The notes: generated from the letters alone by a model not told the origin. 48,349 bases of DNA from a virus (IMGVR_UViG_3300037110_000132), one strand, 5' to 3'. Positions 1,384 through 32,023 are shown, counted from the stretch's first letter. Program-made: numbers and translations.

Positions 1384-1950
1384 ATGAAGCTGTCTCTTAA
1401 TGCGCATATCAAGAAATCTGAGCGGGATGGGGTTATTCCACAGAAACCAGCGAAAGAAGTTCTTGAGGCGTTAAAGAACTATGTTCTCGTTCCCCCTCCG
1501 TTGAGTCTTGATGAGAAGCTTGAACAATGGAATTGTTGGAATGGAAATCATCTAACAAGGGAAGATGTTCTTGAATTAATTGCCCGGTTCCCTTATCATG
1601 GCGTATTATATCGGGGTCTCACCTTTACATCTCGATCTGATTATGAGACATTCTTGGATGTCATTAAAATGGAGGGATTTGAAGACTATCGTGCGTCCTC
1701 ATGGACCACCGATCTTGAGGTAGCGAGGACTTTTGCAACAGGGAAGCAAACCACCAGAAGGGGTCGATATGGTGTGGTGTTGAAACACGAGGGTGAAGCG
1801 GCTGATTTTAGTGCTTATGCCCAGCAACAACACATTTTTCATAAGAATAAAGCCGAGCAGGAGAAGGAAATGATCGTCGCTCCTGGCAAAATCGATGCAA
1901 AGGTCATTGAGTGGTATGTTAAAACAAAACAAGGCTGGATAGCTCAGTAG
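1384..1950 (+). CDS. Putative ADP-ribosyltransferase (R-S-E type) with the conserved N-terminal leader MKLSLNAHIKK
   Basis: Three catalytic motifs in canonical order: LYRGLTF (Arg), ASSWTTDLEVARTFA (STS-like) and EQEKEM (Q/E-x-E). Confidence 0.6.
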   Translation: MKLSLNAHIKKSERDGVIPQKPAKEVLEALKNYVLVPPPLSLDEKLEQWNCWNGNHLTREDVLELIARFPYHGVLYRGLTFTSRSDYETFLDVIKMEGFEDYRASSWTTDLEVARTFATGKQTTRRGRYGVVLKHEGEAADFSAYAQQQHIFHKNKAEQEKEMIVAPGKIDAKVIEWYVKTKQGWIAQ

Positions 1951-2009
1951 CGAAGAGCGCTGCTCTCATAAGGCAGAGGTCGTGAGTTCGATTCTCACTC
2001 CAGCCACCA
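1933..2009 (+). tRNA. tRNA-Met/Ile2 (CAT), elongator type
   Basis: Acceptor ggctgga/tccagcc with G1-C72 paired. Anticodon loop ctCATaa. T-arm gtgag-ttcgatt-ctcac. CCA encoded. It overlaps the last codons of the upstream ORF. Confidence 0.8.
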
Positions 2010-2147
2010 ATGAGGTAGTTAATGCCGATGGGAAAGATACTCTGGACGTTCGGGCCTGGGATATCTCGTCAAACATTGGAGAACTGGGCCGAATACCTGG
2101 GCTTCCTCGCCAGATCAAGTTGTGATATCCTAGGATAGAGGAATCCG

Positions 2148-2918
2148 ATGGAACTGAGACTGAAAGCATATATAGACAGTGACTGGCGTCGGAAATTTGA
2201 GAGTATTAAAGATTTCGTGAGGTCGTTTCACCGTCTACCTCCCAGAAGTTCTAAATTAGGTGAATTCATTTTTGTTCACGCTAATCCAGAATTTAAGGAA
2301 CAATTTATACCAGAAGTGAAAAAATGGATGGACGAACAAAATCTGGATTTACGAGATTTTGCTACTCCGGCTAAGAGAAAGGAAATGAGGGGAGAAGAGA
2401 AGAAAGTAAGAGAAGAGAAGAAAGCCAAAGAGAGAGTGATCAGAGAGAAGACTTTGGCAGAGAATCGGAAATTTAAAGAAGAAAGACTGAAAGAGAAAAT
2501 TACAGATGATAGAAAACAGAAAAGAATGAACAGAATTGATCGTATAAATAAATGTTTTAAATTCCTCAAATTGTATTGTGAGGGCAAAGATGCTCAAGAG
2601 ATTGCTACTGAAACTGGGATGAGTCTCGGTTACACTGGTATGGCTATTCGTGAAGCGAGAAAGTTGCTAGAGCAAGGGTATTTCACAGATTTTGCAGAGG
2701 ACCTGAGTTCTGATGGAGATATTTCCAGAACCCTTCTTAAATGTTGTTCGGGCAAAAAAATTACAGTAGATGATGCAAAACTAATTCTCAGAAAGAATAA
2801 CGAACTCCCCTGGCTGACAAGGGACATGGTGAAATGTAATCTAGACTGGCTGGGGGTTGAGGGTCTTGTATCCAAAACCGGGGATTGGAGGGAAGGTTGG
2901 ATATACCAATTCATCTAG
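2148..2918 (+). CDS. Hypothetical protein: leader-like N-terminus (MELRLKAYID), a highly charged K/E/R-rich central region and a C-terminal HTH-like segment
   Basis: 256-aa ORF. The K/E/R-rich central region is coiled-coil-like and low in complexity. The segment DAQEIATETGMSLGYTGMAIREARKLL resembles sigma-70 region 4 or a LuxR-type HTH. Confidence 0.55.
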   Translation: MELRLKAYIDSDWRRKFESIKDFVRSFHRLPPRSSKLGEFIFVHANPEFKEQFIPEVKKWMDEQNLDLRDFATPAKRKEMRGEEKKVREEKKAKERVIREKTLAENRKFKEERLKEKITDDRKQKRMNRIDRINKCFKFLKLYCEGKDAQEIATETGMSLGYTGMAIREARKLLEQGYFTDFAEDLSSDGDISRTLLKCCSGKKITVDDAKLILRKNNELPWLTRDMVKCNLDWLGVEGLVSKTGDWREGWIYQFI

Positions 2919-2944
2919 CATGATATCCTAGAGGGAAGGGTGCC

Positions 2945-3301
2945 ATGCTTACCAAGAAGATCAGATATCAGGGTGATTCACTTACGGCTGTCTGCGATGA
3001 GAAGTGCAATAAAGCCTGGGGAAACAATCTAAGGCCAGAGATCATACTATCAGATGACCTTGATGATTATGCCTATCTGGCCGATACGGAGCTTGGTGAT
3101 GCTCCGATTGATCCCGGAACTCGTGTGGGGAAAGTGGCGAAGCCTCTTGAACCCTATGACCGAATGAATAAGTGGTGCATCGGTGAATGCGAACGTTGTA
3201 AGCTCTTTGAGAAAGGCGCTGAGATCGAATTGGACGATTTCAATCAAAGATTCTATAACTACGAGCCACATTATAGGGATCAAGATGAAATTAAACTTTA
3301 A
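2945..3301 (+). CDS. Hypothetical Cys-rich small protein
   Basis: 118-aa ORF. It is preceded by gatatcctagagggaagggtgcc, which shares a GATATCCTAG motif with the sequence upstream of 2148. Confidence 0.5.
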   Translation: MLTKKIRYQGDSLTAVCDEKCNKAWGNNLRPEIILSDDLDDYAYLADTELGDAPIDPGTRVGKVAKPLEPYDRMNKWCIGECERCKLFEKGAEIELDDFNQRFYNYEPHYRDQDEIKL

Positions 3302-3725
3302 AGCAAAAATCGCTGGAGGACGGAAGATAAGGTTGGCTCCCTCTGCAATGTTATATCATGGGGGTCCCAAGGTTCCAACGCTGGAGTTGTATCAACCCTC
3401 ATTTTGGACCGACGATTATGAAGCTGCCGAGACTTACAAACCAAAGGGCGGGAAAATCCACATTGCCCAATTGCTAATTCACAACGCCGCTGATCGTTCA
3501 GCTGTTGATGAAGCGTTGGTAGCTATTGGATTAGACCCAATGTTGTATGATTTCCCATTAGATGGAAACGAAAACTTCAAACATCAGGGAGAGCTTGTGG
3601 CTGAACTGAAGCGACGGGGATTCGATGGTGCTGTTATCGAGGATATTGACCTGAATCAGAATGACATCGAGACATGGTGTGTCTTTGATGCTGACCAGAT
3701 TATTCCTCATGGATACGCAGGGTAG
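3285..3725 (+). CDS. ART-like protein with the N-terminal leader MKLNFKAKIAGG (His replaces the Arg of the R-S-E triad)
   Basis: Internal ATG at 3285 within ORF 3183-3725. Motifs LYHGG, SFWTDDYEAAETY and QGE parallel the ART paralogs at 1384, 12522 and 30980. Confidence 0.4.
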   Translation: MKLNFKAKIAGGRKIRLAPSAMLYHGGPKVPTLELYQPSFWTDDYEAAETYKPKGGKIHIAQLLIHNAADRSAVDEALVAIGLDPMLYDFPLDGNENFKHQGELVAELKRRGFDGAVIEDIDLNQNDIETWCVFDADQIIPHGYAG

Positions 3726-3823
3726 CTTTAAGTAGAACACCGGGAATCATCGCCCGGAGATGAGGGTCAGTGATCTGATCGAGTCCCTCCCCTGCCACCA
3801 ATCTACGCGTGTTCCTGTTCGAC

Positions 3824-4438
3824 TCAGGACGCATGCACCAATCTTTGATCTACAATTCTTTTTATAATTTCCAGATACTTGATATCTTTCTTCGGGCTAA
3901 AGAATTTGCTACCGCTAGTGTCAATTGTGCAAAATTCTATTCCCCTTTCTAAACACGCCTGGAATTTCCGCTGGTCGTTATTCTGAATACCATTCAATTT
4001 GTATTGACCATGAATTGGCTCATAATGGAAAATGCCGTTCAATTCGAAGGCCAGTTTCAATGATGGGACGTAGACATCCAATTCTGAATTGATGGTGTCC
4101 TTGCGATTGAAATGGAACTCAAGTAATGGATATGTCAAAACTAATTGCTCTCCGATCCAGGCTTCTAGTTTTGAACGAGTCGTCCCATGAAGCTTATGTG
4201 CATTACTATACCTTACACTACAGGATAAAGAACAGAAAGCTTTACCCGATTTTGAGTTCTTCATCTCATAAGGTTTCTTTCTTGTCTCTTGTCCACAAAA
4301 ACCACAGGGGATAAAGGTTTTCTGTGTTCTACTTTTGTTAAAGCAATCATAGTTGCAGTAGCATTTCTCCCCTTCTCGAAAGTTCTTCTCATCTCTGTCG
4401 AAACTTTTGCCACAATATTCACAAACTAGTGTTATCAT
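3824..4438 (-). CDS. Putative homing endonuclease: N-terminal zinc-ribbons plus a Vsr/DUF559-like restriction-endonuclease-fold domain
   Basis: CxxC pairs CEYCG, CYCNYDC, CGFCG. ELDVYVPSLKLAFELNG matches the Vsr/DUF559 catalytic core. Minus strand in a + strand context. Confidence 0.55.
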   Translation of the reverse strand: MITLVCEYCGKSFDRDEKNFREGEKCYCNYDCFNKSRTQKTFIPCGFCGQETRKKPYEMKNSKSGKAFCSLSCSVRYSNAHKLHGTTRSKLEAWIGEQLVLTYPLLEFHFNRKDTINSELDVYVPSLKLAFELNGIFHYEPIHGQYKLNGIQNNDQRKFQACLERGIEFCTIDTSGSKFFSPKKDIKYLEIIKRIVDQRLVHAS

Positions 4439-4617
4439 ACTTTAGGATAACACTAATCAACAGAACTGATCTCGGAATGTTAATTCCGCTGATTTCAGTG
4501 TTGAGTAAATTCAAGGTGTTTCCTAGGGGTGCGCACCCCAAAGAGGCTTTATAGGAGTGATCCTAAATTGAAAGCTTTCATAACCTGTAATCGGTTGAGT
4601 TGGGCTACACCAACTTT

Positions 4618-4686
4618 GCAAGCATAACTCAGTTGGCAGAGTATCGCCGCAAGCGGAAGCCACAGGTTCGAATCCTGTTGTTTGCA
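4618..4686 (+). tRNA. tRNA-like gene with an aberrant, shortened anticodon arm
   Basis: Acceptor gcaagca/tgtttgc, D-arm ACTCAGTTGGCAGAGT and T-arm acagg-ttcgaat-cctgt are all good. Only 19 nt separate the D- and T-arms; they form a ccg-CAAG-cgg mini-hairpin instead of a 7-nt anticodon loop. Confidence 0.4.
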
Positions 4687-4692
4687 AAAATT

Positions 4693-4767
4693 GCGCATGT
4701 GACCCGAGTGGTTAGGGGCAGGGCTGCAAACCCTGTGACGCTGGTTCGAATCCGGTCATGCGCTCCA
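4693..4767 (+). tRNA. tRNA-Cys (GCA)
   Basis: Acceptor gcgcatg/catgcgc. Anticodon stem caggg/ccctg with loop ctGCAaa. T-arm gctgg-ttcgaat-ccggt. CCA encoded. Confidence 0.8.
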
Positions 4768-4776
4768 TGTTAGAAT
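4768..4776 (+). promoter_or_regulatory. Extended -10 element aTGtTAGAATaa
   Basis: ATGTTAGAATAA directly follows the tRNA-Cys 3' end. The identical 12-mer recurs at 20903 upstream of tRNA-Ala. An AAGAGG Shine-Dalgarno and the ATG at 4792 follow. Confidence 0.45.
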
Positions 4777-4791
4777 AACAAAGAGGTTCTC

Positions 4792-5082
4792 ATGAAAATC
4801 ATCCTACAAGCTACTGTGAAGACAGCCAACTTCGATGCCAACACGGAATGGCAAATTTCCATCACAAGAGATGATGGCCAAATGCCCACAAGACAAGAAT
4901 GCGAAGCGGTGTGTACAGCTGCTGGTGCTACCCTCGTCAGATACGATCCTGAAGGAGATGGAGAAGGCGTTACTAGCGCGAAGATTGGACCACAAATCGC
5001 GAGAATTAAGCAAGTTGCTGGTTATGTTAAAGGTGTCAAACTTCATGGGACCAAATATTACCTTGAGTTCATGGGAAGATAG
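4792..5082 (+). CDS. Hypothetical small protein with a leader-like N-terminus (MKIILQATVKTANF)
   Basis: 96-aa ORF with Shine-Dalgarno aagagg. Confidence 0.55.
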   Translation: MKIILQATVKTANFDANTEWQISITRDDGQMPTRQECEAVCTAAGATLVRYDPEGDGEGVTSAKIGPQIARIKQVAGYVKGVKLHGTKYYLEFMGR

Positions 5083-5108
5083 AAGGGGTGAGAGATTACC
5101 TCCATTAT

Positions 5109-5183
5109 GGGACTAGGTGCCGCAAGGCATCCACACGGCAAAGGGGTCATGTCCAAGCTTCGGTTCGAATCCGAGTAGTCCCC
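5109..5183 (+). tRNA. tRNA-like gene (perfect 7-bp acceptor and T-arm, non-canonical core)
   Basis: Acceptor gggacta/tagtccc is perfect. T-arm ttcgg-ttcgaat-ccgag. The D-region is a gcc-GCAA-ggc tetraloop hairpin, and no standard anticodon arm could be placed. Confidence 0.35.
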
Positions 5184-5419
5184 CATTTGTATAAACAGTC
5201 TATATGTTATTTCTCTTAATCGCGCATAGACGATCGTAAGAGAAGTTGCGCGAGGGCCAAAGAACTGAGCAATTCACGTCCGGTTGCTCTTCCGACTGGG
5301 GTCAGGTAGATAGTGGATCTGGCACTCACGATCGAGGCAAAAGCGGGTGCTGGAGGAATCTGGCACCCGTTCCTATGTTCAATCGCTCAAGGGTTATTAT
5401 AGGTAGAAAGCGAGGAACA

Positions 5420-5743
5420 ATGGACGTCGAATCAGTCAGGAATTCTCTCCCCAAAGGAACGATTCTCGTTGAACTCACTGAACCAATGAAGGGACTGAAG
5501 GTCGGAAAGAAATCAGTACGATTCGGACCTCAGTCTTTCTCCATGTTGGGCAAGTTAATCACTGCCATTCATGTGCTTAAGGAAGCAGTGAGGAAGCAGG
5601 TCCCGGATCAGGAACCCCAGGTTCTGGTGGCGCTCTATGAGGACCGGACCTGGATTTATGCTTGTCCTGCTGAAACTGAGATCATGGTCGCCCTGGACGA
5701 TAGAAACTACCAGCTGAGTGAGCTTAATACCACGGTGATCTAA
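5420..5743 (+). CDS. Hypothetical protein (start uncertain; the longer ORF begins at 5246)
   Basis: ATG at 5420 is preceded by gcgaggaaca. The N-terminal extension of ORF 5246 is low-complexity and looks non-coding. Confidence 0.45.
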   Translation: MDVESVRNSLPKGTILVELTEPMKGLKVGKKSVRFGPQSFSMLGKLITAIHVLKEAVRKQVPDQEPQVLVALYEDRTWIYACPAETEIMVALDDRNYQLSELNTTVI

Positions 5744-5789
5744 ATGGCGATAAGTTTGAACAATTAATCAAAGCTAGGAGAGGTATCCT

Positions 5790-6071
5790 ATGATCCTTAG
5801 CGCAATCCACAAGCATTTCGAAGCACAGAAAGGAAAACCGGTCACTGTCAAAACCCAAGGTAATAGATTCATTGCTAACTGTCCCAACCCTAGACATGAG
5901 GATAAAAATCCTAGTTGTGTTGGGAGTTTGATCACCGGTCAGTATAAATGCCTTGAATGCGGGGAAACTGGGGTTGTGGATTTTGATACCATTGATTACA
6001 CTCCGCTCACTCCAACTAGGATAGTGACTCTTTCAGCCTACAAACCAGATGAAATATCATCAGAGGCATGA
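5790..6071 (+). CDS. Hypothetical zinc-ribbon protein
   Basis: 93-aa ORF with Shine-Dalgarno aggagagg. Cys pairs CPNPRH...C and CLECGETG. Confidence 0.55.
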   Translation: MILSAIHKHFEAQKGKPVTVKTQGNRFIANCPNPRHEDKNPSCVGSLITGQYKCLECGETGVVDFDTIDYTPLTPTRIVTLSAYKPDEISSEA

Positions 6072-6094
6072 GAAAATAAAGGCTGAGGATCGGC

Positions 6095-6664
6095 ATGAAG
6101 CTAAGATTCATCGCAACTACAGCCAAAATTTTTCTCTACTACCCGACCAAGCATCCTGAAATTGTGCTGGCCAGCGGATTTGATCTACAAAAGGAAAAGA
6201 CTTTTCTTGCCAACAGTTATTGTGTCCACGCATTCTCCTCAGTAGCCGCACTGCGTAAATATCATCGCAGTCCCTTTGTCAGAATTATTAAGTTCATCTT
6301 TGATGGTAATTTCGAGGATCCCTGGAAGGCGGAAGATTTGGTCAAACCATTCCATCCTAGGACTCCGGAAGCCTACGCTGAGATCGTACTAGATGGTGGG
6401 ATAGATGCAGTAGTCCATGGTCCTGGTGGGTTGAAGGGTGACAGAGAGTTTGATGTCTTTAAACTCTCTTGCATCAGCAATATTGAGCTAGTACCAAGTG
6501 AACCAATCAGAGGGAAGATCATCAACCCTCTTAGTGGATTGGAAGAAGGTCAGGAAGTGGTTATCCTGACTGAAGAAGGCAAGTACTACATGATCCAACC
6601 TCCTGCGGGAGTGAGGATGAACAAGCCAATCAAAATGCCAAAAGTAAACGTGACCTTGCTGTAA
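6095..6664 (+). CDS. Hypothetical protein with a leader-like N-terminus (MKLRFIATTAKIF)
   Basis: 189-aa ORF. Confidence 0.55.
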   Translation: MKLRFIATTAKIFLYYPTKHPEIVLASGFDLQKEKTFLANSYCVHAFSSVAALRKYHRSPFVRIIKFIFDGNFEDPWKAEDLVKPFHPRTPEAYAEIVLDGGIDAVVHGPGGLKGDREFDVFKLSCISNIELVPSEPIRGKIINPLSGLEEGQEVVILTEEGKYYMIQPPAGVRMNKPIKMPKVNVTLL

Positions 6665-6689
6665 GGTTATTGACTTGAAGGAGTAAGAA

Positions 6690-6869
6690 ATGCAGACAGA
6701 GCAGGTTCCACCTTCCGAAGTTCCCCAGGGCCTCCCCCTCAATCTCAAGAAAGGTCCTGCCAAGCCTCCTCGTGGTCCAAATAATTACACCCAGGAAAGG
6801 GAACGAAAGGCGAAACAGACACAGCATCTGAACAATAAGCCTCCTTTGGTTCCTAGGAAGGCTAAGTAA
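6690..6869 (+). CDS. Small basic Pro/Lys-rich protein (59 aa)
   Basis: Shine-Dalgarno gaaggag upstream of the ATG at 6690. Falls below the ORF-track threshold. Sequence MQTEQVPPSEVPQGLPLNLKKGPAKPPRG... Confidence 0.35.
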   Translation: MQTEQVPPSEVPQGLPLNLKKGPAKPPRGPNNYTQERERKAKQTQHLNNKPPLVPRKAK

Positions 6870-6874
6870 ATAGA

Positions 6875-6949
6875 TCTCTCGTAGCTCAGTGGCAGAGCAA
6901 TCGGCTGTTAACCGATGGGTCGTCCGTTCAATCCGGACCGAGAGAGCCA
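6875..6949 (+). tRNA. tRNA-Asn (GTT)
   Basis: Acceptor tctctcg/cgagaga. Anticodon stem atcgg/ccgat with loop ctGTTaa. T-arm gtccg-ttcaatc-cggac. CCA encoded. Confidence 0.85.
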
Positions 6950-6954
6950 ATTAG

Positions 6955-6963
6955 TGTTATCAT
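6955..6963 (+). promoter_or_regulatory. Extended -10-like element TGtTATCAT after the tRNA-Asn 3' end
   Basis: ccaattagTGtTATCATtaggtaggagg. Same architecture as 343-351. Confidence 0.3.
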
Positions 6964-6978
6964 TAGGTAGGAGGATTT

Positions 6979-7359: not shown

Positions 7360-7375
7360 TTATAAGGAGACAGAA

Positions 7376-12521: not shown

Positions 12522-12905
12522 ATGTCTGATCCTTCTGCACTTCCCCGATGGGTGATCGAATGGATTTATCGTCGTGTTGAGCCTACCAAGGGCCAATGGC
12601 TGAATTTACTAAGGATCCGACCACTGAAAACCCCAACTGTGCTTTATCGGGGCCTCGAGTGGAGTTCCCGGACTTGGGAGACTCGTAGAGAGAACTATGG
12701 AGTGCATGAATCCTATAACTCATGGACTGGAAGTATCTGGATAGCCAAAGGATTCGGTGGTGCTTCCGCAAGGTTTGGGGTAGTTTTATCTAGGGAATTT
12801 TTGCCAGGGGAAGCCGCTGATATAGCCATTAACATGGAACAGGAATTTCTGGCCCCTCCAGGAAACTACAAGGTTAAGGTAGTAGAGAAATGGGGTTTCC
12901 GTTAG
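12522..12905 (+). CDS. Putative ADP-ribosyltransferase (R-S-E type), no leader
   Basis: Motifs VLYRGLEW, YNSWTGSIWIAKGFG and EQEFLAPPG. Confidence 0.5.
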   Translation: MSDPSALPRWVIEWIYRRVEPTKGQWLNLLRIRPLKTPTVLYRGLEWSSRTWETRRENYGVHESYNSWTGSIWIAKGFGGASARFGVVLSREFLPGEAADIAINMEQEFLAPPGNYKVKVVEKWGFR

Positions 12906-13525: not shown

Positions 13526-14407
13526 GTGAAAAAGTTCTTCAGTTACCTCACTCTGATCGTCGGGATGCTGTTCCTGACCTTCAACATCGGCTGCGGTCTG
13601 TTCAACCGACAGTACGTAGAGCCGGGATACGTGGGAGTGCGCGTCTACCTCCATGGCTCCAGCAAGGGTGTCGACCATGAAGTGGTCGGGGCTGGCCGCT
13701 ACTATGTGGGAATGAACGAGAAGCTCTACCTGTTCCCGGTCTTCCTGCAGAACTATAACTACACGCAGTCGGCCAACGAAGGCAGGGCTATGGATGAGTC
13801 GTTCTCGTTCCAGGACAAGCAGGGGATGACCATCAAGTCCGATGTCGGCATCAGCTACGCCTTCGACAAGAACCGGATCGATGATATCTTCACCCAGTTC
13901 CATTCTGGCCCTGACGAGATCACCAATGTGTTCCTCCGTTCTCTGCTGCGTGATGCCTTCAACCGTGCGGCTTCCACTCGTGAGATCCAGGACATCTATG
14001 GTCCCGGTAAGTCGGCCTTCGTCAACGAAGTCCAGGCTGATGTGCAGAAGAGAGCCGCTATCGTCGGCGTCAACGTCAAGAGCGTCCTGCTGATCAATGA
14101 ACTTCGACTCCCCGATCAGATCATCAAGGCCCTGAATGACAAGACCGCTGCGACTCAGAGAGCCATGCAATCTGAGAACGAACTCCGAGTGACCCAGGCT
14201 GAAGCTGCGAAGACTGTCGCCCAGGCTGAAGGATACGCCAAGGCTCTGCTGGTCAAGGGTAATGCTGAGGCCACCTACAACCGTCAGATCTCAGCTTCCA
14301 TCACTCCGGTCCTGGTCGACAAGATGAAGGCCGAGAAATGGGATGGCAAGCTGCCCCAGGTCCAGGGTGGTGGTACTCCGTTCATTAGTCTCGGTGGACT
14401 CAAGTAA
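13526..14407 (+). CDS. SPFH/band-7 (prohibitin/HflK/C-like) family lipoprotein
   Basis: Lipoprotein-type signal (LTFNIGCG). SPFH-like core followed by an Ala/Gln-rich coiled coil (AEAAKTVAQAEGYAKALLVKGNAEATYNRQ). GC-rich gene. Confidence 0.65.
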   Translation: MKKFFSYLTLIVGMLFLTFNIGCGLFNRQYVEPGYVGVRVYLHGSSKGVDHEVVGAGRYYVGMNEKLYLFPVFLQNYNYTQSANEGRAMDESFSFQDKQGMTIKSDVGISYAFDKNRIDDIFTQFHSGPDEITNVFLRSLLRDAFNRAASTREIQDIYGPGKSAFVNEVQADVQKRAAIVGVNVKSVLLINELRLPDQIIKALNDKTAATQRAMQSENELRVTQAEAAKTVAQAEGYAKALLVKGNAEATYNRQISASITPVLVDKMKAEKWDGKLPQVQGGGTPFISLGGLK

Positions 14408-22546: not shown

Positions 22547-24469
22547 ATGGCATTAATGGATCGTTATCAGAATCGCCAGATCAGTTCCAAGAAAGAAGAA
22601 TTAACTCTACAGGAATACCTGGATCTCTGCAAAGCCGACCCAACCACCTACGCCAATGTAGCAGAGCGGATGCTAATGGCCATTGGTGAACCCGAAGTAA
22701 TCGATACTCACCTGACTGACAGGAATTCCAGGATCTTCGCTAACAAGATGATCAGGGTCTATCCCGCTTTCAAGGACTTTTATGGCATGGAAGAAGTGAT
22801 TGAGTCTATCGTCGCATATTTCCGACATGCTGCTCAGGGGTTGGAAGAGAAGAAACAGATCCTTTATCTTCTCGGTCCTGTCGGTGGTGGTAAGTCCTCC
22901 CTGGCCGAGGGCCTTAAGTATCTGCTCCAAAAGGTCCCGTTCTTTGCCATTAAGGGTTCTCCCGTCAATGAGTCACCCCTTGGGCTATTTGATGTGGTGA
23001 ACGATGCCAAGGCGTTAGAAGAGGAATATGGCATTCCCAGTCGGTATCTTGGTAGTATTTTGAGTCCTTGGGCGGTCAAGCGTCTGGAAGAGTTTGATGG
23101 TGATATCTCCAAGTTCAAGATCATCAAGCTTTTCCCTTCTACCTTGTCTCAGGTCGCTATCTCCAAGACGGAACCCGGAGATGAAAACAACCAGGATATT
23201 TCTTCACTGGTTGGCAAGGTTGACATCAGGAAGCTGGAAAAGTACAGCCAAAATGATACCGATGCTTATTCTTACTCCGGTGGTCTGTGCCTATCTAATC
23301 AGGGCATCTTGGAATTCGTTGAGATGTTCAAGGCTCCGATTAAAGTACTGCACCCTCTGCTGACTGCTACCCAAGAAGGAAACTACAAGGGAACTGAGGG
23401 CTTTGGTGCTATTCCGTTCAACGGTTTAGTCCTGGCTCACTCAAATGAAGCTGAGTGGCAGACGTTCAGAAATAACAAAAACAACGAAGCCTTCCTGGAC
23501 CGCATCTACATTGTCAAGGTTCCTTATAGCCTTCGTTTCACTGATGAAACTAGAATCTATCAGAAGCTGCTGGATAACTCTAGCTTGAGCGCAGCACCCT
23601 GCGCTCCTGATACCCTCAAGATGCTGGCCCAGTTCTCTGTCCTCTCTAGACTAAAGGTTCCAGAAAATTCCAGCGTCTTCAGTAAGATGAGGATCTATGA
23701 TGGTGAGAACCTCAAGGATATCGATCCCAAGGCAAAGAGCTATCAGGAATACAAGGACTTTGCTGGTGTGGATGAGGGAATGATCGGTCTGTCCACCCGG
23801 TTCGCCTTCAAGATTCTGTCCAAGGTGTTCAACTATGACCACAATGAGATCGCTGCCAATCCAGTCCATCTCATGTACATCCTGGAGACTCAGATCGGAC
23901 AGATGCAATTCCCGACTGCCACTGAGGACATGTATCGCAAGTACATCAAGGAGTACCTCTCACCCAAATACGCGGAATTCATTGGCAAAGAGATCCAGAC
24001 TGCATACCTCGAAAGCTATGGTGAGTATGGACAGAATATCTTCGATCGCTATGTGGTCTATGCTGACTTCTGGATCCAGGATCAGGAATTCAGAGATCCC
24101 AACACTGGCGAGATGCTGGACCGGGCTGCGCTCAACGAGGAACTGGAAAAGATCGAGAAACCAGCTGGTATCTCTAATCCGAAGGACTTCCGTAATGAGG
24201 TAGTCACATTCGCACTCAGAGCGAAAGCCAAGCACGAGGGCAAGAACCCTTTGTGGACCTCTTATGAGAAACTCCGTGCAGTAATCGAGAAGAAGATGTT
24301 CTCTAATACTGAGGAATTGCTCCCTGTCATTTCCTTCAACACCAAGGCAAGCGCGGACGATCAGAAGAAACACAAAGACTTCTTGGACCGGATGATCGCT
24401 AGGGGTTACACTGAGAAGCAAGTCCGTCTGCTGTGTGACTGGTACCTGCGCGTAAGGAAATCTTCATGA
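22547..24469 (+). CDS. prkA: PrkA/YeaG family serine protein kinase (AAA+ N-domain)
   Basis: 640 aa. The N-terminus aligns with E. coli YeaG (TLQEYL...YANAAERLLMAIGEP...YPAFEEFYGMEDAIEQIV...AAQGLEEKKQILYLLGPVGGGKSSLAE). Walker A motif GPVGGGKS. Confidence 0.85.
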   Translation: MALMDRYQNRQISSKKEELTLQEYLDLCKADPTTYANVAERMLMAIGEPEVIDTHLTDRNSRIFANKMIRVYPAFKDFYGMEEVIESIVAYFRHAAQGLEEKKQILYLLGPVGGGKSSLAEGLKYLLQKVPFFAIKGSPVNESPLGLFDVVNDAKALEEEYGIPSRYLGSILSPWAVKRLEEFDGDISKFKIIKLFPSTLSQVAISKTEPGDENNQDISSLVGKVDIRKLEKYSQNDTDAYSYSGGLCLSNQGILEFVEMFKAPIKVLHPLLTATQEGNYKGTEGFGAIPFNGLVLAHSNEAEWQTFRNNKNNEAFLDRIYIVKVPYSLRFTDETRIYQKLLDNSSLSAAPCAPDTLKMLAQFSVLSRLKVPENSSVFSKMRIYDGENLKDIDPKAKSYQEYKDFAGVDEGMIGLSTRFAFKILSKVFNYDHNEIAANPVHLMYILETQIGQMQFPTATEDMYRKYIKEYLSPKYAEFIGKEIQTAYLESYGEYGQNIFDRYVVYADFWIQDQEFRDPNTGEMLDRAALNEELEKIEKPAGISNPKDFRNEVVTFALRAKAKHEGKNPLWTSYEKLRAVIEKKMFSNTEELLPVISFNTKASADDQKKHKDFLDRMIARGYTEKQVRLLCDWYLRVRKSS

Positions 24470-25698
24470 TCATTGATCGAAGATCGGATAGCAAGCATAA
24501 AAGCTCCGTTAACCGAAGTAGATTCATCCAACGCTTTAAAGGCCAGATCAAGAAAGCTGTCTCTGATACAATCAACAAGGACAGCATCAAAGATCTGGCT
24601 GGCAAGAAGATTGGGATTTCCAATAGAAGCATCAAGGAACCACGATTCAGGACTGGGCCTGGAGGGATATCAGAGGATGTCCATCCAGGTAATGATAAAT
24701 ATCATTCAGGTGAAGAAGTAGAAAGGCCCTATGGCGATGATGGCATGGGATCTAGCGCCAGTCCTGATGGAGAGGGTATGGACGAATTCGTCTTCACCCT
24801 TTCTAGAGAAGAATTCCTGGATATCTTCTTTGAGGAACTGGCACTTCCTAATCTGACTAAGAAGTATTTGGCCAGTTTAAAGGAATTCAAGCGGGTAAGG
24901 GCTGGGATTAGTAATGCCGGAACTCCTAATAATATCAATCTCGTCCGGACTTTCAGGAGCGCCACAGGCCGAAGGGTAGCCATCGGTGGTCCTTATGCCA
25001 CTGAATTAGCAGAATTAGAGGAGAAACTAGCTGAAGTCACAGATGAAGAAGAATTCACATTCCTAACAGAAGAAATAGAGAGGGTCAGGACTCGGATTAG
25101 TCACATTCCCTGGATTGATACCTTCGACCTCCGGTATAATTATCATGATAAGGTTCCTCAGCCTTCGGCTCAGGCTGTTATGTTCTGCTTGATGGATGTA
25201 TCTGGATCAATGGACGAGGAGAAGAAGAACATCGCTAAGCGATTCTTCACCCTCTTATATCTGTTTTTGACTCGTACCTACGAGAAAACTGATATCGTCT
25301 TCATTCGCCATCATGTTCATGCCGAAGAAGTGGATGAGGATACTTTCTTCCATTCTCAGGAAACAGGTGGAACTATTGTTTCCTCAGCATTGAAGCTGAT
25401 GCTCCAAATCATCGAAGAGCGTTACAACAACGGTCAATGGAACATCTATGGTGCACAGGCTTCAGATGGTGACAATTGGTTCGAAGATTCCAATGGGTGT
25501 ATTCAGCTATTGGAAGATCAAATTCTTAAGTTGGTCCAGTATTTCGCGTATGTAGAGATTGCTGAGCGCCCACAAAGCTTGTGGGTTGAATATGAATCAA
25601 TCACGCCGAAATATGAAGGGCTGTTTGCGATCAGACGGATTAATAGCGCGGCTGATATCTATCCAGTGTTCTGTGATCTCTTTAAGAAGCACGAGTAA
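24466..25698 (+). CDS. yeaH: YeaH/YhbH (DUF444) vWA-like protein
   Basis: 410 aa. Stop/start overlap with prkA. MIDAS-type DVSGSMDE motif. Canonical partner of PrkA. Confidence 0.75.
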   Translation: MIIDRRSDSKHKSSVNRSRFIQRFKGQIKKAVSDTINKDSIKDLAGKKIGISNRSIKEPRFRTGPGGISEDVHPGNDKYHSGEEVERPYGDDGMGSSASPDGEGMDEFVFTLSREEFLDIFFEELALPNLTKKYLASLKEFKRVRAGISNAGTPNNINLVRTFRSATGRRVAIGGPYATELAELEEKLAEVTDEEEFTFLTEEIERVRTRISHIPWIDTFDLRYNYHDKVPQPSAQAVMFCLMDVSGSMDEEKKNIAKRFFTLLYLFLTRTYEKTDIVFIRHHVHAEEVDEDTFFHSQETGGTIVSSALKLMLQIIEERYNNGQWNIYGAQASDGDNWFEDSNGCIQLLEDQILKLVQYFAYVEIAERPQSLWVEYESITPKYEGLFAIRRINSAADIYPVFCDLFKKHE

Positions 25699-25700
25699 CT

Positions 25701-27224
25701 ATGCGACAGAAAAAGCCCAAGCTCCCAAAGCTCCCCACCCCTCTCCCCACCGGCTCTGAATGGAGCTTTGATTCCATTCAGGCTTTTGATGATGCATGCA
25801 AGAAGGTAGCGGATAGATTCTCATTGGATTCCTATCCTCACCAGCTTGAAATCATCAGTGCTGAGCAGATGATGGATGCCTATGCGAGCATTGGTATGCC
25901 AGTGTTCTATCATCACTGGTCTTTTGGTAAATCCTTCCTAGCCACGGAGAATAAATATAAACGTGGCTACATGGGCTTGGCATACGAGATCGTGATCAAC
26001 TCAGATCCCTGCATTGCCTACCTAATGGAAGAGAACACCCTGACAATGCAAGCACTCGTCATTGCCCATGCCGCATATGGTCATAATAGCTTTTTCAAGG
26101 GCAACCACTTGTTCAAGCAGTGGACCAGTCCAGATTCTATCATCGACTATCTGGTCTTCGCTAAGAATTTCATCACGGAATGTGAAGAAAAATATGGTCA
26201 AGAGACAGTAGAGAAGATGTTAGATGCTTGCCATGCCCTGATGAATCTTGGTGTGGATAGACACAGACGCGCTCCTAAGCTCTCAATGGTGAAAGAGAAG
26301 CTTCGTCAGAAGGAACGTGAGGAATATCTACAGTCACAGGTCAATGAGCTTTGGAAGACTTTACCTTTCCAGTCCAAGAAGGAAGAAGGAAATACAGAGA
26401 AGTTTCCTAAGGAACCAGAGGAGAACGTCCTCTATTTCATCGAGAAGAATGCTCCCCTCCTGGAACCCTGGCAACGAGAAATTATCAGGATTGTCCGTAA
26501 GATCGCACAATACTTCCACCCTCAGAAGCAAACTCAGCTAATGAACGAAGGGTGGGCATGTTTCTGGCACTATAAGATTCTGAACACATTATATGACGAT
26601 AATTTGGTCGGTGATGGGTTCATGCTTGAGTTCCTACAGTCCCATACAAATGTCTGTTATCAACCAGCCTATAGTAGCAAATGGTATTCGGGAATTAGTC
26701 CCTATGCCTTTGGTTTTGCAATGTGGCAAGATATTAAGCGGATTTGCGAGAAGCCAACAAAAGAGGATTCTGAATGGTTCCCTAGCATCGCAGGATCAGA
26801 CTGGCGTGAGACACTTGAGTTCGCTATGAACAATTTCAAGGATGAGAGTTTTGTCTCCCAGTATCTCTCTCCAAAGATGATGAGAGATTTCCATTTATTC
26901 TCTGTGCTAGACGATGATGAGGAAGAAGATCTCATTATCGGCCCAATCCATGATGAGGTTGGTTACTATGGATTGCGTCAGAGATTGTCGGATCAATACA
27001 ACCTGGGCAGTCGTGAACCAAATATTCAGGTTTGGAATCTGGATAAGCGTGGAGATCGGACTCTGACCCTGAGATATTTCAGCTACCATCGGAAACCCCT
27101 TTACAAAGATTTCATTGATGTTGTGAAATACACCGCTTATCTCTGGGGCTTCCCAGTTGCCCTGGAAGAGCAAGATGAAACGGGCTTCGTGGACTTCTTG
27201 GGGATGGAAACTCCTGAAATTTGA
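25701..27224 (+). CDS. spoVR: SpoVR/YcgB family protein
   Basis: 507 aa. Third member of the conserved prkA-yeaH-spoVR triad. Assignment rests on size, operon context and conserved blocks such as YHHWSFGKSF and EGWACFWHYKIL. Confidence 0.7.
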   Translation: MRQKKPKLPKLPTPLPTGSEWSFDSIQAFDDACKKVADRFSLDSYPHQLEIISAEQMMDAYASIGMPVFYHHWSFGKSFLATENKYKRGYMGLAYEIVINSDPCIAYLMEENTLTMQALVIAHAAYGHNSFFKGNHLFKQWTSPDSIIDYLVFAKNFITECEEKYGQETVEKMLDACHALMNLGVDRHRRAPKLSMVKEKLRQKEREEYLQSQVNELWKTLPFQSKKEEGNTEKFPKEPEENVLYFIEKNAPLLEPWQREIIRIVRKIAQYFHPQKQTQLMNEGWACFWHYKILNTLYDDNLVGDGFMLEFLQSHTNVCYQPAYSSKWYSGISPYAFGFAMWQDIKRICEKPTKEDSEWFPSIAGSDWRETLEFAMNNFKDESFVSQYLSPKMMRDFHLFSVLDDDEEEDLIIGPIHDEVGYYGLRQRLSDQYNLGSREPNIQVWNLDKRGDRTLTLRYFSYHRKPLYKDFIDVVKYTAYLWGFPVALEEQDETGFVDFLGMETPEI

Positions 27225-27266
27225 CACCAAGTCGTCCCGGTGTTATCCTAAAGCAGGAGAACTCCA

Positions 27267-28010
27267 ATGATGAATTCGTTTGACTTCGAAGAGGAATCAG
27301 CTAAACATGATGCGATTGTGGCCGCGATGACTCCGTTCGACAAGATCAAGAAGATCAAGAGGAACAATCTCCAATTGATGAAGATGGATAGATACTTGGA
27401 GAAGAAAGTTTCCAGGATTCTCAAGGACTACTTCAAGAAGCCCCTGGATCAGCGTGTTATTTATATCACCAATTATGAGATGATTCACCGCTCTGATTGC
27501 TTTGAAACTCATCCAGGGGCCGTCGTCACTCATACTTCGGATATCTTGGTCAATGGTAGTAGCTATTATTGTGCTATCTGTGGCTATTACATTAGCACCC
27601 ATGAGGGCTGTGGTTCCTGCGATGTGATGATGAGGATCCCTTATTCCCTGTGGGAGCGAGTCTATTCCTGCTTCAGTCAGCTACAATACCTCACTGAGGG
27701 CTGGAAGTGGTTTCGAAAACGATTCTACTGGCTACCCAAACGGGGTTACCATTGGTTCTTCGAAGTCGATGATATCAGCCATTCCTATTTCAACCTGGAA
27801 CTGAAGCCTGATCATGACGGGGATACATGGCTTGAGCGGGATCTCAAGTATATGCTGTCCCGCAGCACTTTCGAATCTGATATCCGCTGGATCGGCACCC
27901 TGCCCGATGGCCTGGGAGAGAAGGACCTGGAAGATGCTGTGAAATGCTGGTTCAAGGACCGGTATGACCTTGAAATTAACGTCAAGTGGGTCCCGAACGA
28001 TCTTGACTAA
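27267..28010 (+). CDS. Hypothetical Cys/Trp-rich protein
   Basis: 247-aa ORF with Shine-Dalgarno aggaga. Motif CAICGYYISTHEGCGSC. Confidence 0.5.
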   Translation: MMNSFDFEEESAKHDAIVAAMTPFDKIKKIKRNNLQLMKMDRYLEKKVSRILKDYFKKPLDQRVIYITNYEMIHRSDCFETHPGAVVTHTSDILVNGSSYYCAICGYYISTHEGCGSCDVMMRIPYSLWERVYSCFSQLQYLTEGWKWFRKRFYWLPKRGYHWFFEVDDISHSYFNLELKPDHDGDTWLERDLKYMLSRSTFESDIRWIGTLPDGLGEKDLEDAVKCWFKDRYDLEINVKWVPNDLD

Positions 28011-29467
28011 AGAATACTTGTGTTAGAAGTCGTGTTGTGGTATAATTTTTTCGGATAAGGCTAACGCCGAATCCCGCTCCCCCGCCAGGGTGCGACTGGT
28101 GTAATCCTGGTGGGTGTAGGTCCGGGGGAGTCAACAAATCTTCCCCGGACCACCGAGATCCTTGACAACTTGGCATGCAGAGATTGTAAGATTAGGATCA
28201 CGAGCCTATTCAAAGCCTTGCGTTGAAGCTATAAACCGACCTGCGAGGGTCTGTTCTTGGTCTGAGTCGATGGAGGGGGCAACTCCTGAGAAATTGGCAA
28301 CATGATACGCGGAGACTAAAAAGGATCTTACTTGTGGAGATATAATCGCCACCTGGACCTAAAAAATCTAGAAATGGATTTGCGTTTCACCGCAACGTGG
28401 GCGGTGCAACTTCCGGTATAAGCTAGCGATAGTGAAGCTGGAGGCCATGATGGTTGAGGGAGAGCCATCTGCTAGGCTACGGTTTGTTGGCTTGTTGCCG
28501 TAGTAAAAGATAGCCTAAAACCAACACCCATTCGGTCTTGCTAACCGGGTGGTTTCGATGGGACCGGCATGAAGGCCGATCACAGCCAGTCATCAGAGCG
28601 CCCTTAGAGCCTGTGGCAAAGAGCCTGAAAGTTAGGCCGCGCCGGTAAAGCAGGATTGGGTGCAATTTCGGAAAAGAACAACTTGGAATCGCCGGGAAAC
28701 CGGAGTCCGCAAAGAGGCCGATGGACTGAGATACTGGTGATGCCCCTGGAAGCATCAAAGGGAATGGAGCGTGGAGCATAAGGGAGATCTAATACAAGCC
28801 CGAAAGCTGTGAAACAATCCATCTGATCTAGACTCACCCTTTGACGCTGGATGACTCCTGATAGATTAGGTGCATCTCAATTTGATATCAGGATAAGCGA
28901 AGAATTCTGGACCCAGCGGATGAATTCGTCGAAAACCCCCTATGCAGTGACATGGGATGGTTGCAGGTATGAGAAACCTGATACTTTCAGTTGAGAAAGA
29001 CTGGATTACTTACACGTGGTAAAGAACGTGAGGTCCTGGACACGCTTGAATTTGCTAAGGGCGTGGATGCGGTGAGCCAGGATGCTGGGGAGAGGGTACC
29101 AGCAGGGGTGAAGTTTCGCATTGACTCCTTAGTCCTTCTTAGGATAAGCTGCGAGATAGGGTGATGATTTCCCTAGACGAATGGACGAGGAATAAGACGC
29201 TGAGTCCAGAAACTATAATCCGGTGCTCGATCTTCCGCCGTGAGTGGAGATCCGGTAATTGAGACACCCTCCTCGTAAATAGGGAATCTCCGGTGACAAT
29301 GAGAACTAACGCCATCAGGAAACATCGTCCAGTTCTACAGTCAGCTGCTACACCGGTAGTTTCGCCTCATAAGGTGCATGCTGGTTACGCTGCGAAATGT
29401 TGACGTCTTGACCGAGGGCATGAGGTCATGCAAATTGAGGGGGAGCCTAAAAACTCCCCCTCAATAT
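28011..29467. ncRNA. Candidate large structured non-coding RNA (1.45 kb ORF-free region)
   Basis: No ORF of 60 aa or more on the + strand, in an otherwise gene-dense window. Contains a 9-bp perfect hairpin ggtccgggg/ccccggacc (28119-28151), a hairpin tgatgc/gcatca (28735-28754) and several GNRA-type tetraloop hairpins. Confidence 0.3.
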
Positions 29468-30805
29468 TTATATATGAACGAGTGGAGCAAATCTATCTTG
29501 TCCGTCATAATATTCAGTAAACCCAAGTTCTTTAGCTCTCTTTATAAGAGTAGCCTTATCCTCATTAGCTCCTCTTAACTGCAAATCTCTATAAGTCTCG
29601 CTGGCAAACAAAACATACCAAGGGCGCTTGGAAGCTTTTAGATTCTCATAGATAAAACATTCCACCACAAATTTTTTTATCTTGATCTTGATTGGTAGTT
29701 TCTTGCCTCTAGGCTTAATATAGTTTTCAGATTCTCCAATGAAACCCCCAGGCCATTCTCCATTGATAACTGCTCCATTAATGAGTTTTATCCCATCGAA
29801 CCCAACTGAGAACCAACTCCATATTAGTTCGATTGCAGCGTTCTCAAATTCGCATTGAATTCCATTTGGTAATTCATACCAACCATCTACTTCTTTGTAT
29901 CCATAATCACCCTTTGTGAATTTCTGTAATCCCAGAGGATCTTTCGGCATATTGTTGGTTTCTAGGGTCTTCCCGGTTAGTGCATGCACTGCTTTTGCGA
30001 AAGGCCCTCTTAATTGTCCTGACACTTTATGATATAGCTCAAATTCGTCTTCTAATTTATATTTGTTGTTCAATGCTTTCTGAAGAGGAAATGCCATTTC
30101 ATGATATTTATTGTCAAAATGATCCCAAATGCTCCCATTATGATGGCAGACATCATAAGCATGGTCTATGGCGATTACCTTTTCTATTAAACTGTTTGCG
30201 GATAACAACCTCTTATATCCTGGTACCACCTGCAAGTACCAAGGATCTTTCTCTCCTCCCATGGACAAGTATTCATGGACAGTCTCACAAAATAGTAATC
30301 CCTTGTTTCCCAAAAGTTTTAATTGGGCTTTTATATTATTATCCTGAATGTTCGCTCGTTCTTCTTGGATTTCCTTAGCCTTTTCAGGGTCTTTGGTATA
30401 TAGAACCGGAGACAGATCAGGTAAAGGTTTAATAGTATTTTTATCAAATAATAATTCGTAATTTGGGAACACTTTAGAGACTTTGGCTAAACCTCTACGA
30501 CGTTTCTCTTCTAGTCTTTCCGTTATTTCCTTTGTAGCACATTCAGTATGTTGCATCGCATCTTTTAATTCATCAATTGCTCTCCAATAAACCGCTTGCT
30601 TGAAATTCTCCAAAAGATCCCGATGAAGGTAATCAATCAATTTCTCTTCTGCATCTTTGACGTAAGACTCTAGGTCAATATCTAGTTCTTTAGCCCTATG
30701 AGTAACTAAAGATAAAGCGTAAAAATCGTACAAACACAAAATCGGGTCCTTCGGAATCTCGTAGGACCGAGAAGATGCAATTTTAGCCTTCAGATATAAT
30801 TTCAC
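29468..30805 (-). CDS. Hypothetical protein (445 aa) with the N-terminal leader MKLYLKAKIASS
   Basis: Minus strand, AT-rich. N-terminus matches the leader family. Confidence 0.6.
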   Translation of the reverse strand: MKLYLKAKIASSRSYEIPKDPILCLYDFYALSLVTHRAKELDIDLESYVKDAEEKLIDYLHRDLLENFKQAVYWRAIDELKDAMQHTECATKEITERLEEKRRRGLAKVSKVFPNYELLFDKNTIKPLPDLSPVLYTKDPEKAKEIQEERANIQDNNIKAQLKLLGNKGLLFCETVHEYLSMGGEKDPWYLQVVPGYKRLLSANSLIEKVIAIDHAYDVCHHNGSIWDHFDNKYHEMAFPLQKALNNKYKLEDEFELYHKVSGQLRGPFAKAVHALTGKTLETNNMPKDPLGLQKFTKGDYGYKEVDGWYELPNGIQCEFENAAIELIWSWFSVGFDGIKLINGAVINGEWPGGFIGESENYIKPRGKKLPIKIKIKKFVVECFIYENLKASKRPWYVLFASETYRDLQLRGANEDKATLIKRAKELGFTEYYDGQDRFAPLVHI

Positions 30806-30979
30806 AAGTTCCTCTAAATTTCATTTTAACATTTGAGTGATATACTTGGATAAGGAGGTCAGATTTATGGATTTCATTGAGAAGCGTAAACACAAACATT
30901 TTAGACTCCTCTTCATTAGCTTCCATGATTTATGGATTAGACATATCAAACCAGATATTTACTCGGCTTTCTCTGATCA

Positions 30980-32023
30980 CTAAATCTTTTTCTTTCGTGG
31001 ATTCTTTTCGTGTTGTCCAGCCCAAAGTTCATCAAAGATCTTCTCGATTCTGCCAGTAACTAATAGATCTAGGAATTCTCTCTTTGAGCTATTTTTAATA
31101 TCAAATTGGAAAGTATCACAAGGTCTATGATCACTATTATTCCATTTGTTGTATTCACACTGGAAATGATCGGGGTCAAGGATAGCAAGAGACAGATTGC
31201 CACCTTTATTGGGTAAATCAAAGCTCCAGCCGGGGTCGCTATTCCAGGTTTTATGGGGTGTCCCACCACCGAATTTTTGAGATAATTTTTCACCCAATTT
31301 CTTCATTTCCCTTTTGATTAGTGCATCAATTTGGAGGCCCTCTTGCCCTCCCCACTCTCCGAATAACTTACAAATTTCCACAGGGTAGGAACCGCCTTTA
31401 AGCAGATATTCCTTCTGGTGGAATCTCACAATATGATCCAGGATCTCATCCGGGAGGTCCGACATAGCAATACCAATTTGGTCGGGTGTGACGGTAGTCT
31501 TTAGGATCACCCCCAGAGAATCTGGGTCCCGACCCACAATAGAGAAGGTGCCTGCAAACTGTTCAGCAATTTCTGGGTTTGAACTCCAAGATTGCACCTT
31601 GAGGGTCTTATAGATCCCAGTACTCCCTACTTGAGGATCTTTGATACCCAATTTCTTCATGAAAGGAGCACCATTGATGGATTTGAAACCTAAGCCTCTA
31701 TAGAGGACTATTGGCTGGGTTGGGCAGAAGCGTTCGAAATAGGGAAAGATGTCCTTGTCAACGATCTTGCCTGCGTTGTTGTTATATCGATTTAGTTCTT
31801 CTGCGGCCCAAGTAGGGATTTTGTTATCTCTTAGATAATTTTCATAATTTTCTCTGATTTGGCTCTGGACCTTGCGATATTGACGATCAATTTTTTCCGT
31901 CTTGGAATTTTCATCCCAACTGTTGACTCCCCGTGCTCGCTCCTCGTCATTGACCCTGATGTACTCCTCCCTCAATTTAGTGAGTTTATCACGTAGAGGA
32001 CCAGCTATCATGGTTAGTTTCAT
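30980..32023 (-). CDS. Putative ADP-ribosyltransferase (R-S-E type), 347 aa
   Basis: Motifs VLYRGLGF, VQSWSSNPEIAEQFA and HQKEYLLKGG (Q-x-E). N-terminus MKLTMIAGPL is weakly leader-like. Confidence 0.55.
   Translation of the reverse strand: MKLTMIAGPLRDKLTKLREEYIRVNDEERARGVNSWDENSKTEKIDRQYRKVQSQIRENYENYLRDNKIPTWAAEELNRYNNNAGKIVDKDIFPYFERFCPTQPIVLYRGLGFKSINGAPFMKKLGIKDPQVGSTGIYKTLKVQSWSSNPEIAEQFAGTFSIVGRDPDSLGVILKTTVTPDQIGIAMSDLPDEILDHIVRFHQKEYLLKGGSYPVEICKLFGEWGGQEGLQIDALIKREMKKLGEKLSQKFGGGTPHKTWNSDPGWSFDLPNKGGNLSLAILDPDHFQCEYNKWNNSDHRPCDTFQFDIKNSSKREFLDLLVTGRIEKIFDELWAGQHEKNPRKKKI

Follow-up and report, generated by a model that had tools for sequence, protein, structure and literature searches.

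More than 40% of jumbo phages encode ADP-ribosyltransferases (ARTs); T4 has three of these enzymes, and in Bacillus phage G there are at least ten (PMC9503650). Among viral ARTs, the most frequent are an N4-like family in the H-Y-[EDQ] clade and, in the R-S-E clade, the Alt/VIP2 family; the latter also occurs in Mimiviruses and is frequently fused to MuF (PMC9503650). Many phage ARTs are packaged in the head, often by way of fusion to MuF (PMC9503650). ART-PolyVal, an N4-like type of the Tox-ART-HYD2 clade, has been defined by a His in strand 1, a Tyr in strand 2 and an Asp in strand 5, its prototype being part of the virion RNA polymerase encoded by Roseovarius Plymouth podovirus 1 (Iyer et al. 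2017; PMC5512222). In T4, a short N-terminal peptide, the capsid targeting sequence (CTS), is the sole common feature of diverse effector-like proteins, namely the internal proteins and Alt (PMC3012670). Here we describe a stretch of 48,349 nucleotides from a virus (IMGVR_UViG_3300037110_000132), hereafter called the window, which probably encodes three R-S-E mono-ARTs, closest to the Alt/VIP2-C3 type, together with a probable H-Y-D ART and an N-terminal leader peptide that is guessed to be a sorting tag. A sequence-only reading had described four paralogous R-S-E-type ARTs in this window. All four open reading frames (ORFs) were found where it had placed them, with every motif it quoted, and three of them do share one family; the fourth showed no detectable relationship to these three.

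The first member of the trio, ORF 1384 (1384-1950, plus strand, 188 amino acids), starts with the leader MKLSLNAHIK (nt 1384-1413) and carries LYRGL at residues 75-79, SSWTT at 105-109 and EQEKE at 158-162. EQE (E158-Q-E160) had been taken for its catalytic motif, but the family alignment sets the register at E160-K-E162, so that the candidate catalytic residues are R77, S106 and this pair of Glu. The ORF overlaps the gene for tRNA-Met (1933-2009) by 18 nt. ORF 12522 (12522-12905, plus strand, 127 amino acids) is a minimal form that lacks the leader; it has LYRGL at 41-45, NSWTG at 66-70 and EQE at 106-108, corresponding to R43, S67 and E106-Q-E108, and both ends of the protein coincide with the boundaries of the conserved domain while all catalytic residues are kept. 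ORF 30980 (30980-32023, minus strand, 347 amino acids) has a divergent leader, MKLTMIAGPL, and carries LYRGL at 107-111, QSWSS at 144-148 and QKE at 203-205 (R109, S145 and Q203-K-E205). It is composed of an N-terminal helical hairpin (2-66), an ART core (about 100-222) and a conserved C-terminal domain (226-340).

Similarity among the three was detected by internal BLASTP between ORF 12522 and ORF 1384 (E 7.5e-8) and between ORF 12522 and ORF 30980 (E 0.004), and by pairwise comparison between ORF 1384 and ORF 30980 (E 6e-5); judged by these alignments, it is not a matter of chance. VLYRGL, SW, A..F, GV.L, E..D, the last Glu of [E/Q]-x-E and the following Gly are invariant in the alignment of the trio. 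A family hidden Markov model (HMM) gave the three E values of 5e-55, 2e-39 and 3e-18 in a search of 246 window ORFs, among which there are no further members, no other ORF falling under E 0.028.

A word-indexed homology search with ORF 1384 alone returned the query itself only. With a joint profile of the three cores, HMMER was run exhaustively over 1.84 billion cluster representatives; 384 of them matched at E<=1e-3, and 25 of these reached E<=1e-10. One protein retrieved in this search, P0082, was discarded as a false positive arising from 19 weak repeats. In an alignment of 86 sequences the signature is a classical R-S-E one. The Y-R-G motif has its Arg in all 86, with Tyr in 83 and Gly in 84, and [S/T/Q]-S-W-[T/S] has its Ser in 84, Trp in 85 and the final Thr or Ser in 81. 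The first position of [E/Q]-x-E is Glu in 58 sequences or Gln in 27, and the last Glu is kept in 84 of the 86. The family continues past this motif with h-h-L-x-P-G-x-Y, a tail which we take to resemble the region beyond E-x-E in toxins of the C2/C3/VIP2 type.

Most members of this family have no Pfam domain; weak matches to an ART family (DRAT, ART or ADPrib_exo_Tox) were seen in 7 of 102. What decides the connection to the known families is P0027. This protein of 1814 amino acids is matched by the window profile at residues 895-981 and 1160-1245, and Pfam assigns to the same protein an N-terminal Phage_Mu_F domain, ADPrib_exo_Tox at 823-999 (E 1.7e-44) and ART (PF01129) at 1152-1252 (E 2.3e-23). 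The profile matches of a second protein, P0060, likewise overlap ART domains assigned by Pfam. Since these matches fall within Pfam ART domains, they link the trio to the ART families by sequence, in a transitive manner only. Among the PHROGs, ORF 1384 has weak matches only, to a MuF-type 'minor head protein' profile of 1440 positions (E 1.6e-5) and to 'RNA polymerase ADP-ribosylase' (phrog_832, E 1.3e-3); phrog_832 does not match the other ORFs. A profile search of PDB sequences gave Vis as its sole match in the ART region (E 0.16), with YRG aligned on YRG and, at the E-x-E site, KEkEvIL on KEAEVLF.

An AlphaFold2 model, made for the 347-residue product of ORF 30980 only and built on the 86-sequence alignment, has a mean predicted local distance difference test score (pLDDT) of 86, exceeding 90 in the ART core, and a predicted template modelling score of 0.76. 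It shows the predicted split beta-sheet fold of ARTs, with R109 in strand 105-113, S145 in strand 144-147 and E205 as the first residue of strand 205-208, which at the level of secondary structure are the canonical positions of beta-1, beta-2 and beta-5. The closest solved folds are the bacterial toxins C3stau2 (1ojz), Vis (4xzj) and Lmo0066 (8za7), at 13-16% sequence identity. In the BFVD database, Foldseek retrieved two Mimivirus proteins (E ~1e-6), a MuF 'phage head morphogenesis domain' protein (E 2e-4) and an annotated arginine ART of cyanophage S-PM2 (E 3.5e-3).

Several results weigh against this assignment. No sequence model of Pfam, NCBIfam or PDB directly detects any of the R-S-E ORFs; in particular, Pfam PF03496 and PF01129 gave no hit at E<=1 for any of the three. 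A Foldseek search of PDB with the full-length ORF 30980 model found nothing significant (best E 0.08), probably due to the multi-domain nature of the model and its helical N-terminus. The placement of the Arg, Ser and Glu in a cleft is something that we infer from secondary structure and homology, in the one protein modelled. Nevertheless, the profile link, the conservation of residues and the predicted fold together support identification of ORFs 1384, 12522 and 30980 as R-S-E ARTs with intact catalytic signatures. The R-S-E type proposed for these three in the sequence-only reading thus stands; the profile searches that it suggested bear it out by way of P0027 and P0060, although not by direct Pfam detection, and the fold prediction it called for agrees in the case of ORF 30980.

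Alt/VIP2 takes in T4 Alt, ModA and ModB, MuF-fused phage ARTs, and ARTs of Mimivirus and chloroviruses. The family resemblance to it lies in the signature R, S-x-S/T and [E/Q]-x-E followed by h-h-L-x-P-G-x-Y, in the predicted fold and in the occurrence of several ARTs in one genome, as in T4 and Bacillus phage G. In addition, the window profile matches MuF-ART head proteins and the structure search finds Mimivirus proteins, which fits the published distribution (PMC9503650). The window trio differs from Alt/VIP2 in that it is missed by PF03496 and PF01129 and reaches the RNA polymerase ADP-ribosylase PHROG with one ORF at the above E value only. The three proteins are also solo and small (127-347 amino acids) without MuF fusion, have a conserved Trp in S-W-T and, with the exception of ORF 12522, a leader of their own at the N-terminus, and are encoded in a tRNA-rich region rather than beside baseplate or head genes. 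Compared with the C3-like and Vis toxins, apart from the low sequence identity given above, the window proteins are viral and lack a secretion signal, and ORF 30980 has extra helical N-terminal and C-terminal domains.

The four genes had been regarded as paralogous copies that imply a diversified effector arsenal. However, each R-S-E gene has its nearest homologues in other viruses. Outside relatives of ORF 30980 share 35-44% identity over 200-285 residues (E down to 8e-57, at 43% identity), and the closest of them, P0002 and P0003, have in common with it a C-terminal extension with the motif KTWN..PG[FW]. The best relative of ORF 1384, P0032, is 36% identical (E 1.6e-23), whereas the best pair within the window in the same comparison, ORFs 12522 and 1384, reaches only E 1.8e-7. 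Recent local duplication is thereby rejected; by sequence comparison the trio constitutes three subfamilies and looks assembled from distinct ones. In P0032, found on Logan contigs L002 and L003, SSW is replaced by ATGW and the sequence surrounding the E-x-E position is FEQAV, so that this copy may be catalytically dead. Loci with several ARTs recur in the family, since many of its members are multi-ART polypeptides, and since a phage-like 88-kb contig (L001; GCA_030154545.1, JASEYN010000480) encodes, besides P0003, a second gene with a weak Pfam ART hit that lies three genes downstream of P0003 (8001-8840 and 9162-9641).

ORF 3285 (3285-3725, plus strand, 146 amino acids) had been thought of as a divergent member of the R-S-E set with His in place of Arg. 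Gene calling on a Logan contig independently yielded an identical product of 146 amino acids. It starts with the leader MKLNFKAKIA and carries LYHGG at 23-27, FWT within 39-42 and QGE at 101-103, with a C-terminal strand VFDADQI. Comparison with the R-S-E trio was negative by BLASTP (E 1.1), by hhalign (probability 2%) and with the family HMM (E 6.3). On these results the idea of a divergent R-S-E paralogue is rejected, and the set becomes three plus one. Membership in the ART superfamily itself probably holds, by marginal statistics, in a different clade, H-Y-D: the only Pfam hit of ORF 3285 among 24,736 families is ART-PolyVal (PF18760), with E 0.077. The prototype domain of the podovirus polymerase was located at residues 1023-1096 and beyond (Pfam E 9.8e-9).

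From viral contigs 16 related loci were collected, and an ART-PolyVal HMM was made from 10 complete domains with ORF 3285 left out. With this HMM, ORF 3285 ranks first among the 246 window ORFs (E 0.011, 10.9 bits), and none of 5000 shuffled sequences reaches its score, the shuffle maximum being 7.4 bits. In the HMM alignment, LYHG falls on [VF]YHG, SFWT on G[FI][FYW][FL]T, DPM on NP[LY], GFDGAV on G[YFH]D[GS]hh and VFDADQI on hhFxPxQI. H25, F40/W41 and D114 would thus occupy the His, Tyr and Asp columns of the family, in an alignment that rests on the 10.9-bit match. QGE (101-103), formerly proposed as the catalytic motif, aligns with a variable helix in a variable column, and the acidic residue would instead be D114 in GFDGAV. 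In this alignment ORF 3285 coincides with ART-PolyVal in the YHG of strand 1, the aromatic-aromatic-Thr of strand 2, NP(L/M), the Asp of G[YFH]D[GS] in strand 5 and the C-terminal QI. It differs in being a solo protein of 146 amino acids with a leader rather than a domain of a giant polyvalent virion protein, and in having Phe/Trp at the defined Tyr, where the prototype has Phe-Phe.

We consider it fairly likely, by this profile match, that ORF 3285 is a solo N4-like ART of the H-Y-D type with the candidate triad H25, F40/W41 and D114. The alternative, that YHG, FWT and GFDG are a chance resemblance in an orphan of another fold that is not an ART, is given a smaller though appreciable chance. 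It draws on the Pfam score, which at 14.2 bits is under the PF18760 cut-off of 31.2, and on BLASTP and hhalign against four prototype ART-PolyVal domains, neither of which gave significance (hhalign probability <2%). Homologues of ORF 3285 were found neither in a word-indexed search, in tblastn against phages or in PDB sequences, nor in scans of viral and metagenome contigs, and its single-sequence AlphaFold2 model is unusable (pLDDT 37). All of these count against an ART. Chance resemblance, in turn, has to account for ART-PolyVal being the sole matching Pfam family, for the first rank and the shuffle control with the independent HMM, and for the alignment of five conserved motif blocks in the right order and with the right spacing.

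The leader, which had been noticed on two ARTs, is present on three of the four ART ORFs (1384, 3285 and 30980) and on six further, orphan genes, ORF 12522 being without it. Its consensus is M-K-L-x-L-x-A-x-I-K. A relaxed pattern, M-[KR]-[LIFVM]-x-[LIFVM]-x-[ASTG]-x-[IVLTP]-[KRAL], matches 10 of 1040 candidate starts in the window, and nine of these head credible genes, starting at 371, 1384, 3285, 4792, 6095, 30805 (minus strand), 32023 (minus strand), 42587 and 44916. In two control loci, 42-kb regions of other large phages, there were 0 matches and 1 spurious internal match, respectively, by which the leader as a general trait of phage gene starts is rejected. The codons vary at synonymous sites between copies, indicating that selection acts on the peptide and disposing of a repeat at the DNA level. 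The proteins behind it are otherwise unrelated by internal all-against-all comparison, and in ORFs 1384 and 3285 it stands outside the catalytic domain. P0032, which comes from another metagenome and is the closest outside relative of ORF 1384, retains it as MKLKLKAKV. The leader is thus real, modular and specific to the phage studied.

The six leader-bearing orphans, none of which received a family assignment in family scans, are encoded at 371-1018 (215 amino acids, MKLHLTASVK), 4792-5082 (96 amino acids, MKIILQATVK), 6095-6664 (189 amino acids, MKLRFIATTA), 42587-43252 (221 amino acids, MKLHLKAKIK) and 44916-45470 (184 amino acids, MKLTLKATIK) on the plus strand, and at 29468-30805 on the minus strand (445 amino acids, MKLYLKAKIA, with a GTG start), directly downstream of the ORF 30980 gene. 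Extended -10 boxes resembling TGTTATAAT are seen on the plus strand at 343, 4768, 20904, 33314 and 44891, either immediately behind a tRNA gene or some 20 nt ahead of a leader-bearing gene. Their enrichment is marginal (10 matches against 4.95 expected, a number reached by 3 of 100 shuffles), and an enrichment of sigma-70 promoters near the genes was rejected, 16 having been found against 18 expected.

The T4 CTS is a MKTYQEFIAE-like peptide that is cleaved after Glu. The window leader is like it in being the only shared feature of diverse, small and fast-evolving effector-like proteins that include ARTs. It is unlike the CTS in that M-K-L-x-L-x-A-x-I-K has no Glu and no evident cleavage site, and neither a prohead protease gene nor a scaffold gene was recognised among the ORFs scanned. 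Packaging and injection after the manner of T4 Alt is a reasonable analogy, and it accords with published accounts of many phage ARTs as head-packaged proteins (PMC9503650). That the leader is a packaging tag is nevertheless doubtful, and the same grade is given to the fuller proposal that the decapeptide is a capsid- or ejection-targeting signal of a very large phage lineage, which would load at least nine unrelated effectors, including ARTs of two clades, for co-injection with the DNA.

There is about an even chance that the leader is instead some other sorting, stability or regulatory element, such as a degron, a strand recognized by a chaperone or protease, a localisation signal, or a translation-initiation peptide of one temporal gene class. 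A packaging role is disfavoured by the lack of a common cleavage motif after the leader and of identifiable head, portal or protease genes among the window ORFs scanned. In the ORF 30980 model, moreover, the leader is not a free peptide; it belongs to a long helix and runs without a break into the N-terminal hairpin. Several leader-bearing genes are preceded by -10-like TATAAT boxes, so that they could be co-regulated early genes expressed after injection and not packaged. A packaging tag gains, on the other side, from the conservation of the leader at the amino-acid level despite synonymous variation between copies, from its modular occurrence on unrelated domains, and from its likeness to the T4 CTS case, where diverse effectors have only an N-terminal tag in common.

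As to enzymatic activity, targets and leader function, we infer the following scheme. By analogy with the ART superfamily, each ART would bind NAD+ in the cleft of the split beta-sheet, where the Arg of beta-1 and the Ser-x-Ser/Thr of beta-2 would hold the dinucleotide. The last Glu of [E/Q]-x-E, which is invariant and stands where beta-5 begins, would stabilise the oxocarbenium intermediate. ADP-ribose would then be passed to a host macromolecule. By analogy with characterised toxins, ORFs 1384 and 12522, with E-x-E, are predicted to be arginine-directed; for ORF 30980, with Q-x-E and additional N- and C-terminal domains, the acceptor may be another one. The role is likely to be takeover of host transcription or translation, or counter-defence. 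The best guess for the leader is a sorting tag, for example a capsid-targeting signal that would load diverse effectors into the virion as the CTS does.

It is improbable that the R-S-E proteins are mainly NAD+ glycohydrolases, or RNAylation enzymes like T4 ModB, rather than classical protein mono-ARTs. Their structural neighbours Vis, C3stau2 and Lmo0066 modify proteins, the first two being deposited as ADP-ribosyltransferases and the third as an ART-type toxin effector, and nothing in the R-S-E sequences separates NAD+ hydrolysis or RNAylation from protein transfer. The same triad does support both of these chemistries in known ARTs (PMC9503650). Less probable still is that the ARTs are toxins of lysogenic conversion, or parts of toxin-antitoxin systems, that serve or police the host. 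Some phage ARTs are indeed toxins or toxin-antitoxin components (PMC9503650), and the nearest solved folds are those of bacterial toxins. However, the ORFs scanned include no secretion signal, no receptor-binding domain and no adjacent antitoxin or immunity gene (ARH, Macro), the relatives are proteins of phages and giant viruses, some of them MuF-fused, and the surroundings of the genes are rich in tRNA genes and belong to a large phage that looks virulent.

We read the window as an accessory region, rich in tRNA genes, of a large phage that had not been sampled before. A comparison with 50,697 phage records gave no near-identical relative; short Logan contigs hold genes identical to window genes. 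Its genes are mostly plus-strand orphans, among which 17 tRNA genes are spread along positions 149-44889. A plus-strand operon at 22547-27224 encodes a PrkA/YeaG-like kinase (640 amino acids), a YeaH-like protein (410 amino acids) and a SpoVR-like protein (507 amino acids). The nearest relatives of this operon share 56-71% identity with it and come from a record of Enterobacter phage LAU1, from uncultured huge phages of 630-640 kb (LR756502, LR745206 and LR756504) and from Ralstonia jumbo phage RsoM2USA. The 293-residue product of ORF 13526-14407 (plus strand) strongly matches the PHROG 'lipoprotein' (phrog_200, E 2e-64); few other genes of the window belong to a clear phage family. Around 35 neighbouring or large window ORFs were scanned without any match to head or packaging families. 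ORFs 34328-34564 and 34906-35271 (plus strand) are a small paralogous pair (35% identity over 51 amino acids, E 6e-10 in the internal all-against-all comparison). The ORF 30980 gene and the 445-residue leader-bearing orphan belong to a three-gene minus-strand cassette (29468-32941) amid plus-strand genes, and GC content is lower at 30-32 kb (0.40, vs about 0.47 elsewhere in the window). In view of its low GC content and its orientation opposite to the surroundings, this cassette may be an acquired module. A predicted tRNA-Gln(ctg) gene (32098-32172, plus strand) overlaps ORF 32078-32941 of the minus strand, lying inside its 3' end.

Phage ARTs redirect the RNA polymerase and the translation of the host, and they also act in NAD+-centred defence and counter-defence. 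Sets of several ARTs in jumbo phages have already been published, and those of the window are further members of known families; what goes beyond the literature searched is an R-S-E branch poorly covered by curated profile libraries, and the modular leader. The locus adds three members to this Pfam-missed branch of about 384 cluster representatives and a probable solo N4-like ART, all of which are useful for annotation and are candidates for new target specificities, though not conceptually new. The modular leader is a more useful lead than the ART set. Should it truly be a packaging tag, the effectors that an uncultured phage lineage injects could be identified computationally. The leader would then be an independently evolved counterpart of the T4 CTS/internal-protein system and a sequence handle for the injected effectors of uncultured huge phages.

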